From Naegleria gruberi (lineage: Eukaryota): a DNA stretch of 1,820 nt. The DNA lies in the NCBI GenBank assembly GCA_000004985.1, contig GG739324.1; one strand, written 5' to 3'. The notes under the pieces were generated by a model. The model was given only the letters and a program-made list of their open reading frames with translations, did not search any database and had not been told where the DNA came from. The translations under genes were made by a program, and so were the position numbers. Each line of letters begins with the position of its first letter. The first letter of the stretch is position 1. Below are positions 1 through 1,820 of this stretch, piece after piece.

Positions 1-169
1 GTTTCTCTCTTTTCACGTAACAGTAAGCATTGGCACGATCATTTAATTGTTCAATTCTATTCAAAACATCGAGAATTACATCTTTTGGAGAGAGGGAAAG
101 TGAACGAAACCTTTCTAACATTTCTGATGCTGTTAGAAAGCACAATCTCTTATCTGTTGGTTGAGACAT
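1..169 (-). CDS. 5' exon of an amidase-signature family enzyme (fatty-acid amide hydrolase / Glu-tRNA amidotransferase A-like). Partial: it continues beyond the window start.
   Basis: The reverse complement of 169..2 reads ATG TCT CAA CCA ... with no stop. It translates to MSQPTDKRLCFLTASEMLERFRSLSLSPKDVILDVLNRIEQLNDRANAYCYVKREK. The stretch T-A-x-E-L..(F/I)R.G.LSP.DV......RI...N...NA(Y/F) fits the conserved N-terminal helix region of amidase-signature proteins (Pfam Amidase family). ATG 169..167 is the first Met after an in-frame upstream stop at 226..224. The start context aataataaaaaaATG is A-rich and has no SD. The ORF track omits it because it is only 56 codons in the window and has no stop. 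Confidence 0.6.
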   Translation of the reverse strand, partial: MSQPTDKRLCFLTASEMLERFRSLSLSPKDVILDVLNRIEQLNDRANAYCYVKREK

Positions 170-341: not shown

Positions 342-524
342 ATGATCCTCTCCGCAGTTACTGAACATCTAACTCATGTTCGATTCATATTTTGGTTGTT
401 CGAGTATTTGTTGGAACTGAATCAACGTTAAAAACAATTCAAAGTTGAAATAAATAAAAATTGTTTGGGGATTACTGATTATGATAAATTCGATATATTA
501 TTGGATGTTGAAAAGAACAAAGTA

Positions 525-1082
525 ATGGATGGAAGTGGGAAAATAGCTGGCACTATTGTAAATAAATGTTTACGTTCTATTGACTGCACAAAAATTCACA
601 ACAAAAACAGAAAATCTGACTCGTGCGTGAAGTGTTGTGATTTGAAAAGCAAGCTAGATACAAATCTCCAAAAAGTTCATAAAATTCTAGAAAATCCAAA
701 TACTCTTCCTCCTTATTCATCCATAATACCATATCCTCAAGTCATGTATCAACTATTACGTGAAACTACGAAAGCTTTGGGAAAGTGTGAGCCCAGTAAC
801 TTTGAAACAAAAATAATAGAATCATTAAGGAAGGCCAAAGCACAATATGAGATTAATTCAAGTCTTAAATCAAAACATATTAAAATGAACAAAGATCCAA
901 CAATTGAAAATAAGCAATGTGAGCAAGAATTACTTGAAAATGAGCAAGAATTAATTGAAAATGAGCAAGAATTCATTGAAAAAGATACTGATCAATCCAA
1001 ACAATCCAAAAAAACTGATAGATACACACACGTTCCACCTCAAAAACAAAATGGGAGACAGGTGAAATGTTTAAAAATCTAA
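525..1082 (+). CDS. Lys/Glu-rich orphan protein with an N-terminal Cys cluster and a C-terminal heptad-repeat (coiled-coil-like) segment. It may be a single exon.
   Basis: The 618-nt open frame at 465..1082 has p of roughly 1e-5 for this AT content. The track start at 465 is a TTG, a prokaryotic start rule. The first in-frame ATG is 525..527 (gtaATGg) and the stop TAA is 1080..1082. The in-frame stop upstream is 429..431. The frame keeps the 21-bp repeats as exact 7-codon units. I recognise no homology. The product is lysine-rich and probably disordered. Its C-terminus is basic (KQSKKTDRYTHVPPQKQNGRQVKCLKI). Confidence 0.5.
   Translation: MDGSGKIAGTIVNKCLRSIDCTKIHNKNRKSDSCVKCCDLKSKLDTNLQKVHKILENPNTLPPYSSIIPYPQVMYQLLRETTKALGKCEPSNFETKIIESLRKAKAQYEINSSLKSKHIKMNKDPTIENKQCEQELLENEQELIENEQEFIEKDTDQSKQSKKTDRYTHVPPQKQNGRQVKCLKI
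921..983 (+). repeat. Three tandem 21-bp repeats, in frame (7 codons each). An upstream degenerate fourth copy lies at about 900-920.
   Basis: The units are gagcaagaattacttgaaaat (921-941), gagcaagaattaattgaaaat (942-962) and gagcaagaattcattgaaaaa (963-983). They differ at only 1-3 positions. They encode EQELLEN / EQELIEN / EQEFIEK. The sequence 900-920 (caattgaaaataagcaatgt) resembles the unit's 3' half plus its 5' half. Confidence 0.9.
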
Positions 1083-1260
1083 AGTTTACAATGTGAAAGG
1101 TTCGTTTTTGATGTCAGTGAAGTTTTGAATAACTTTTTACATTATGGAAATTTTACCAATTTGCTTTTTACCCAGCATTATTGTAACATTTAAGGTCTCG
1201 AACTACAGTAAAGCTGTGGACGAATGGTTTCGAATAATAGTCAACATGACTTTGACAATC

Positions 1261-1309
1261 TAAAAAAGGCAACCAAAAAAAATTAAAAACCAAAAAACAG
1301 TTAAAAGAA
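1261..1309 (+). promoter_or_regulatory. A-rich leader (5'UTR / proximal promoter) directly upstream of ATG 1310.
   Basis: The sequence taaaaaaggcaaccaaaaaaaattaaaaaccaaaaaacagttaaaagaa is over 75% A. It ends in an A-rich start context, with no SD-like GGAGG. The only AG before the ATG (aaaacag, 1294-1300) lacks a polypyrimidine tract, so a splice acceptor is not supported. Confidence 0.3.
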
Positions 1310-1820
1310 ATGACAACACTCCATCTCTCTGACTTTCTACCTCTGCAACCAATGCTTAGAGATAAATTATCTTCAAATCAACGAAATAGAATTTCATTTT
1401 CTGCAAATTTCGAACAAATTCATTCTTTAGGTCAAGAAGATTCGGATTCTTATAGATTTTCTTATCCGAAAGATGTGAAAATTTCATATCGGATGGGAAT
1501 TGTGTTTGTGAGTGATTTTGGAAATCGAAAAATTGCACTTTTCAATTTATTTACAAAAATGTTTCTCTATTCGATAGAGTTGGACGAAAGTCCACAATGC
1601 CTAGCTGTGGATGAAGACGATTTTGACAACTTGTTCATCACTTTGAGTTTTACAAAAGTGTGCAAATTGAGAATTTGGCTCATGTTAGATGATGTAAAAT
1701 ATACGAAAGTATGGGAAAGAGGAGAAAAGGCAAAGAACTTTCGTCAAGTGAGACAAGAATTGAATTTGGACGAAATAGATCTTGCTTCTGATGTGGAAAC
1801 TGCCATTCAACAACCTTCAC
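1310..1820 (+). CDS. 5' part of a protein with NHL-repeat-like / six-bladed beta-propeller-like motifs. 3'-partial: it continues past the window end.
   Basis: Frame 2 is open from the stop 1253..1255 to the window end. ATG 1310..1312 sits in the context aaaagaaATGa. A second in-frame ATG is at 1352. There are 170 codons in the window and no stop. At least 6 out-of-frame TAG/TAA triplets are avoided. The translation is MTTLHLSDFLPLQPMLRDKLSSNQRNRISFSANFEQIHSLGQEDSDSYRFSYPKDVKISYRMGIVFVSDFGNRKIALFNLFTKMFLYSIELDESPQCLAVDEDDFDNLFITLSFTKVCKLRIWLMLDDVKYTKVWERGEKAKNFRQVRQELNLDEIDLASDVETAIQQPS. The segment PKDVKISYRMGIVFVSDFGNRKIALF fits the NHL consensus P.G(V/I)A(V/I)D..G.(I/L)(Y/F)V(A/S)D..N.R(I/V)..F. 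A second, weaker copy is PQCLAVDEDDFDNLFIT. The antisense strand is closed by stops: minus frames at the right edge stop within 26 codons. The ORF track omits it because it has no stop in the window. Confidence 0.55.
   Translation, partial: MTTLHLSDFLPLQPMLRDKLSSNQRNRISFSANFEQIHSLGQEDSDSYRFSYPKDVKISYRMGIVFVSDFGNRKIALFNLFTKMFLYSIELDESPQCLAVDEDDFDNLFITLSFTKVCKLRIWLMLDDVKYTKVWERGEKAKNFRQVRQELNLDEIDLASDVETAIQQPS

Follow-up and report, generated by a model that had tools for sequence, protein, structure and literature searches.

At the right-hand edge of a 1,820-nucleotide (nt) stretch of Naegleria gruberi DNA (contig GG739324.1; hereafter the window, which very probably comprises the whole of a small unplaced scaffold from the assembly), an open reading frame (ORF) runs along the + strand and off the end of the DNA. 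With high probability this edge frame is the 5' 42% of an intronless gene for a stand-alone NHL propeller, a probable binding platform. After an in-frame TGA the frame stays open over 1256-1820, that is for 565 nt or 188 codons, with ATG codons at 1310 (M1) and 1352 (M15). Why was such a long frame not listed by the ORF program? It is absent because it runs past the window end, and unclosed because the 1,820-nt scaffold ends there; the list shows an antisense ORF of 60 amino acids at 1356-1538. A preliminary description of this DNA, made from the letters alone, had already pointed to an unlisted coding ORF of at least 170 codons, to its 565-nt extent from the stop at 1253 and to the listed antisense ORF, and translation and the list itself agree with it. 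Its estimate that stops occur by chance every 16-20 codons was too generous, as the composition of the window (37% A, 30% T) gives a stop probability of 0.078 and an expected spacing of about 12.8 codons, i.e. denser. The chance of 188 consecutive open codons in any one frame chosen beforehand is then about 2e-7, and among 2000 mononucleotide shuffles of the window none had 188 open codons in any of the six frames (maximum 166). The remaining five frames contain 8-15 stops apiece over 1256-1820.

The identity of the gene came from an exhaustive HMMER scan of 1.84 billion representative proteins with the 170-residue product of the frame as query, which returned 449 relatives at E<=1e-3. The best of them (P0001, 401 amino acids, E 4.7e-106) aligns over its residues 1-170 with residues 1-170 of the fragment, and its 90% cluster, which has a precomputed Pfam NHL match, includes XP_002674006.1 / EFC41262.1, the product of NAEGRDRAFT_70981 (P0151; UniProt D2VPT6). 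This N. gruberi 'predicted protein' of 401 amino acids is encoded on a 508-kb scaffold (508,457 nt); both GenBank and UniProt thus have an entry for the NHL gene, under no functional name. The window product is identical to its residues 1-170 at 168 of 170 positions (the substitutions are R61Q and V134L) and shares its start methionine; NAEGRDRAFT_70981 is the same gene as the window ORF, an allele or haplotype, the window copy stopping at codon 170. The preliminary description had assumed a nematode. This identity places the DNA in Naegleria gruberi (Heterolobosea), and the SL1/SL2 trans-splice and nematode-proteome checks that it proposed are therefore irrelevant. P0001 itself is coded by a related metagenome contig of 1346 nt (L001) as a single uninterrupted 401-codon ORF; the gene therefore has no introns, and its first 42% lies in the window. 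Of the two architectures considered earlier, an N-terminal or stand-alone NHL protein and the first exon of something larger, stand-alone is the one that holds, and the larger gene is contradicted by the 401-codon ORF on L001 and by the 401-residue reference. Between the window and L001, the 510 coding nt show eight differences (seven in third positions, six synonymous) and no indels, and the non-coding DNA further 5' of the ATG shows a 9-nt and a 5-nt indel. This substitution pattern indicates purifying selection on exactly the edge frame, and it agrees, like the shuffles and the relatives, with the earlier call of a coding ORF. Other routes gave nothing: no match was found in a word-indexed protein search with the 170-residue fragment, in exact-pattern DNA scans of viral and metagenome contigs, in blastn against phage records, or in exact look-ups in the contig index (the 205- and 185-residue ORFs of the window, P0151 and P0153), and neither Rfam (E<=1) nor ARAGORN found an RNA gene within the window.

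Is the fragment itself recognisable as an NHL protein? In the hidden Markov model (HMM) threshold check that had been named beforehand, the 170-residue fragment alone stays below the Pfam NHL (PF01436) gathering threshold of 20 bits, scoring 13.9 bits (E 0.057) over residues 50-72. The full-length proteins score 74.3 bits (P0151) and 71.1 bits (P0001), with no other family above threshold. By Pfam score, therefore, the complete gene is an NHL member and the fragment by itself is not. The propeller classes suggested for comparison, SGL (PF08450) and Str_synth (PF03088), have no match even at E<=10 in P0151 or the window fragment, leaving NHL as the class; Arylesterase reaches 12.8 bits on the full-length protein against a cut-off of 21.3. 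With a profile built from 28 family members, the top match is the NHL domain of Drosophila Thin (1.3e-82), and TRIM71, TRIM3, TRIM2 and Brat come next. The signal of this profile is dominated by the C-terminal blades, so the alignment was trimmed to the window-encoded residues 20-140 (A2, 24 members). With the trimmed profile, TRIM71 (6.7e-30), Thin (1.1e-28) and TRIM2/3 (about 1e-18) are still found. Positions 25-63 of this profile, where blade 1 and the first of the two motifs lie, can be aligned in turn to all six blades of TRIM71; unaided, the N-terminal segments of 8 of the 24 members match Pfam NHL. By these profile comparisons the window-encoded part is NHL repeat sequence in its own right. 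The NHL assignment is based on the full-length allele score, the family profile of the window region and the predicted fold, and not on the fragment score.

The AlphaFold2 model of the 401-residue protein (mean predicted local distance difference test, pLDDT, 80.2; predicted template modelling score, pTM, 0.83) presents a predicted six-bladed propeller with four-stranded blades, and in a Foldseek search of the PDB with this model the top ten matches are all NHL domains. The features encoded within the window are collected in the table. The N-terminal extension is modelled with helices at residues 6-9 and 13-20 (pLDDT 44-73). Blade 1 has strands at 53-59, 64-69, 74-79 and 85-90 (pLDDT about 95), and blade 2 at 95-101, 107-112, 116-124 and 129-137 (pLDDT 85-96). 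The two NHL-core motifs of the preliminary description are both present, at corrected coordinates, and differ in standing. Motif 1, FVSDFGNRKIALF (residues 66-78, nt 1505-1543), is a canonical NHL core and lies in blade 1; motif 2, LAVDEDDFDNLFIT (residues 98-111, nt 1601-1642), is not a second canonical core and corresponds to the first two strands of the degenerate blade 2, which has no separate Pfam NHL match in the fragment or in the N-terminal segments of the family and is seen by the structure model only. The insert that follows has pLDDT 44-50 over residues 140-180, and the loop has an isoelectric point (pI) of 4.1 and a net charge of -6. The full protein is also acidic (pI 4.9, net charge -15) and would be soluble; no hydrophobic or signal-like segment (maximum KD19 1.41) and no second domain were found in it.

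Table. Features of the edge frame within the window
Feature	Position (nt)	Strand	Basis or remark
Upstream in-frame stop TGA	1253..1255	+	Translation; bounds the open frame
A-rich non-coding leader	1256-1309	+	Between the stop and ATG 1310
Partial coding sequence, codons 1-170 plus 1 nt, of the 401-codon stand-alone NHL-propeller gene	1310..1820	+	168/170 identity to XP_002674006.1; same start on L001; third-position substitutions
N-terminal extension, residues 1-30	1310..1399	+	LHLSDFL (h-h-L-x-D-F-like) and LRDKL helix recurring in Naegleria paralogues (alignment)
Strand 36-40 (QIHSL, then G41)	1415..1429	+	DSSP strand; conserved FSxxFExxxxxG family motif
Blade 1, residues 50-90, canonical NHL repeat FSYPKDVKISYRMGIVFVSDFGNRKIALFNL	1457..1579	+	Sub-threshold Pfam match, A2 profile, model
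Blade 2, residues 95-137, degenerate NHL blade	1592..1720	+	Model; family-invariant Trp135
Acidic insert, predicted disordered, separating blade 2 from blade 3; residues ~140-185 (~45)	1727..1820 (window ends inside)	+	Low pLDDT

Two ATG codons could open the frame, and the one at 1310 is the likely start, judging from the sequence comparisons, over the one at 1352. It is favoured because no other ATG lies between it and the upstream stop, because both independent gene calls (P0001 and XP_002674006.1) use it, because a comparable hydrophobic motif occurs in the N-terminal extensions of the paralogues, and because the window differs from L001 at 1337, 1343 and 1346 by synonymous third-position changes only. 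The pairwise BLASTP alignment with the longer N. fowleri model begins at residue 16 only and is compatible with both ATGs.

What kind of copy does the window carry? That the frame is merely a chance opening in AT-rich non-coding DNA has only its missing stop codon to recommend it; against the stop statistics, the shuffles and the 449 database relatives, one of them at 4.7e-106, the idea keeps a negligible probability and we regard it as refuted. A dead fragment, i.e. a truncated duplicate lying beside a transposon remnant, would fit the tiny, unplaced scaffold, the presence in the same window of a transposase-like gene reduced to part of its 5' end (438-1052) and the two amino-acid differences from the reference protein. 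Such a relic is nevertheless very unlikely, as the copy runs through 170 codons without a stop or frameshift, its differences from L001 are mostly synonymous, and small scaffolds are typical of unmerged haplotypes in heterozygous assemblies. The window copy is probably such an unmerged haplotype (allele or haplotig) of the NAEGRDRAFT_70981 locus, which we infer in preference to a recent duplicate.

And what would the protein do? In the proposed arrangement, one six-bladed NHL propeller would follow an N-terminal lead-in of about 50 residues, in which strand 36-40 is predicted, from the register of the NHL repeats, to be the outer fourth strand of blade 6 and would close the ring against that blade as a 'velcro'. 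By analogy with those NHL propellers to which no catalytic domain is joined, the ring would most likely serve as a rigid platform holding a partner (a protein, possibly RNA) on one face. Could it rather be an enzyme? Enzymatic six-bladed propellers include PAL-like lyases, SMP-30/gluconolactonase-like lactonases and strictosidine-synthase-like proteins, and a catalytic role is quite unlikely here: NHL is the only Pfam family above threshold, with SGL and Str_synth unmatched and Arylesterase well short of its cut-off, and in sequence and fold the protein comes closest to TRIM-NHL domains, which are non-catalytic. These same relatives, the NHL domains of TRIM71, Thin/TRIM32, TRIM2/3 and Brat, are what speaks for an RNA-binding module in post-transcriptional control, like that of Brat or LIN-41/TRIM71 and lacking the TRIM part. 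We consider this role unlikely, given that the protein carries none of the RING, B-box, coiled-coil and filamin parts, starts about 50 residues before blade 1 and has the negative net charge and low pI given above. The acidic charge argues weakly against a basic RNA-binding face of the TRIM-NHL type, and a local basic patch could still be there. The stand-alone binding platform is thus the reading that we carry forward. The edge ORF is a genuine gene fragment for which organism, likely start and domain class are now fixed, and its significance lies mainly in annotation.

Further features lie elsewhere in the window. The product of the ORF at 465-1082 (+) is 100% identical to NAEGRDRAFT_76989, a 185-residue N. 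gruberi 'predicted protein'. Over 438-1052 (+) the window matches residues 6-210 of NAEGRDRAFT_54887 (1135 amino acids, on a 4214-nt N. gruberi contig) with 99.5% identity; this protein combines an RNase_T exonuclease domain with an RNase H domain, near threshold, that resembles the one of THAP9/P-element transposases. The remaining 925 residues of NAEGRDRAFT_54887 are absent from the window and the frame ends nine codons past the homology; NAEGRDRAFT_76989 probably represents what is left of the 5' part of a transposase-like gene, or else an exon before an unrecognised intron. At the left edge a 56-codon frame, MSQPTDKRLCFLTASEMLERF..., reads on the - strand from ATG 169 (window 2-169) and runs off the DNA; it may belong to the 5' end of a neighbouring gene with divergent transcription. 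Its 56 residues have no Pfam or PDB sequence match, and an amidase N-terminus, considered for this frame, was dropped as these searches did not support it at this length. Between ATG 169 (-) and the transposase-like fragment lies an island rich in guanine and cytosine (GC), GGCGGGGGG...CCCGCC, at about 198-257, amid DNA of about 31% GC; the RNA hairpin predicted there is no stabler than in shuffles (z -1.09 on +, +0.14 on -) and Rfam has no match to it.

Stand-alone NHL propellers of 300-450 amino acids form a multigene family in N. gruberi, N. fowleri and N. lovaniensis, of which the gene at the window edge is a member. The ten named relatives that were looked up beyond NAEGRDRAFT_70981 all come from these three species, and the family matches fall into at least about 25 clusters at 50% identity. 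Other members of this paralogue family, such as FDP41_013699 (N. fowleri), C9374_009501 (N. lovaniensis) and NAEGRDRAFT_73362 (N. gruberi), have the same architecture as the window gene. Their short lead-in at the N-terminus carries the motifs L-x-x-K and FSxxFE, and blade 1 contains DVKISY; blade 2 is followed by a Trp that is invariant, and the six blades end C-terminally in RIxIF. These members are 24-40% identical to the window gene, and the long acidic insert is found only in the orthologue group of the latter. The NCBI model of FDP41_013699, the N. fowleri orthologue (389 amino acids; P0004/P0152), starts with MERCESPQ, within the homologue of window residues ~40-47. A 456-residue N. fowleri call from other assemblies reaches further upstream and aligns with window residues 16-40. 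From this alignment, the NCBI model probably lacks the true N-terminus, the ring-closing strand included. No paper in the literature searched deals with Naegleria NHL proteins or with the NAEGRDRAFT locus tags and accessions. Naegleria, the pathogen N. fowleri included, carries an unstudied expansion of stand-alone NHL propellers. It is tempting to see in this family a lineage-specific set of adaptors or RNA-binding proteins that would replace TRIM-NHL regulators without the ubiquitin-ligase part, a doubtful proposal drawn by analogy; if true, TRIM-NHL-type regulation would be carried out by propellers alone in a deeply branching eukaryote.

How does the Naegleria protein compare with the NHL and propeller proteins already known? 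In other NHL-type propellers of eukaryotes and bacteria (NHLRC2, the lumenal domain of SOQ1, the sensor domain of PknD, and PAL), the propeller is joined to a thioredoxin-like, kinase or monooxygenase domain or is secreted, whereas the Naegleria protein has neither an additional domain nor a signal-like hydrophobic segment. TRIM-NHL proteins are defined by a RING, a B-box and a coiled coil N-terminal to the NHL domain, an arrangement not seen here. The preliminary description had noted no RING or B-box upstream, and Pfam agrees, finding no RING, B-box or filamin match in the fragment or in the full-length protein; only the short lead-in separates the start from blade 1, with the stop at 1253 before it. 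Compared with the TRIM-NHL proteins, the Naegleria protein thus lacks RING, B-box, coiled coil and filamin domains, is acidic overall, comes from a protist and shares 13-24% identity; it is nonetheless to the NHL domains of this group (TRIM71/LIN-41, Thin/TRIM32, TRIM2/3, Brat and Mei-P26) that it is nearest, in both sequence and structure.
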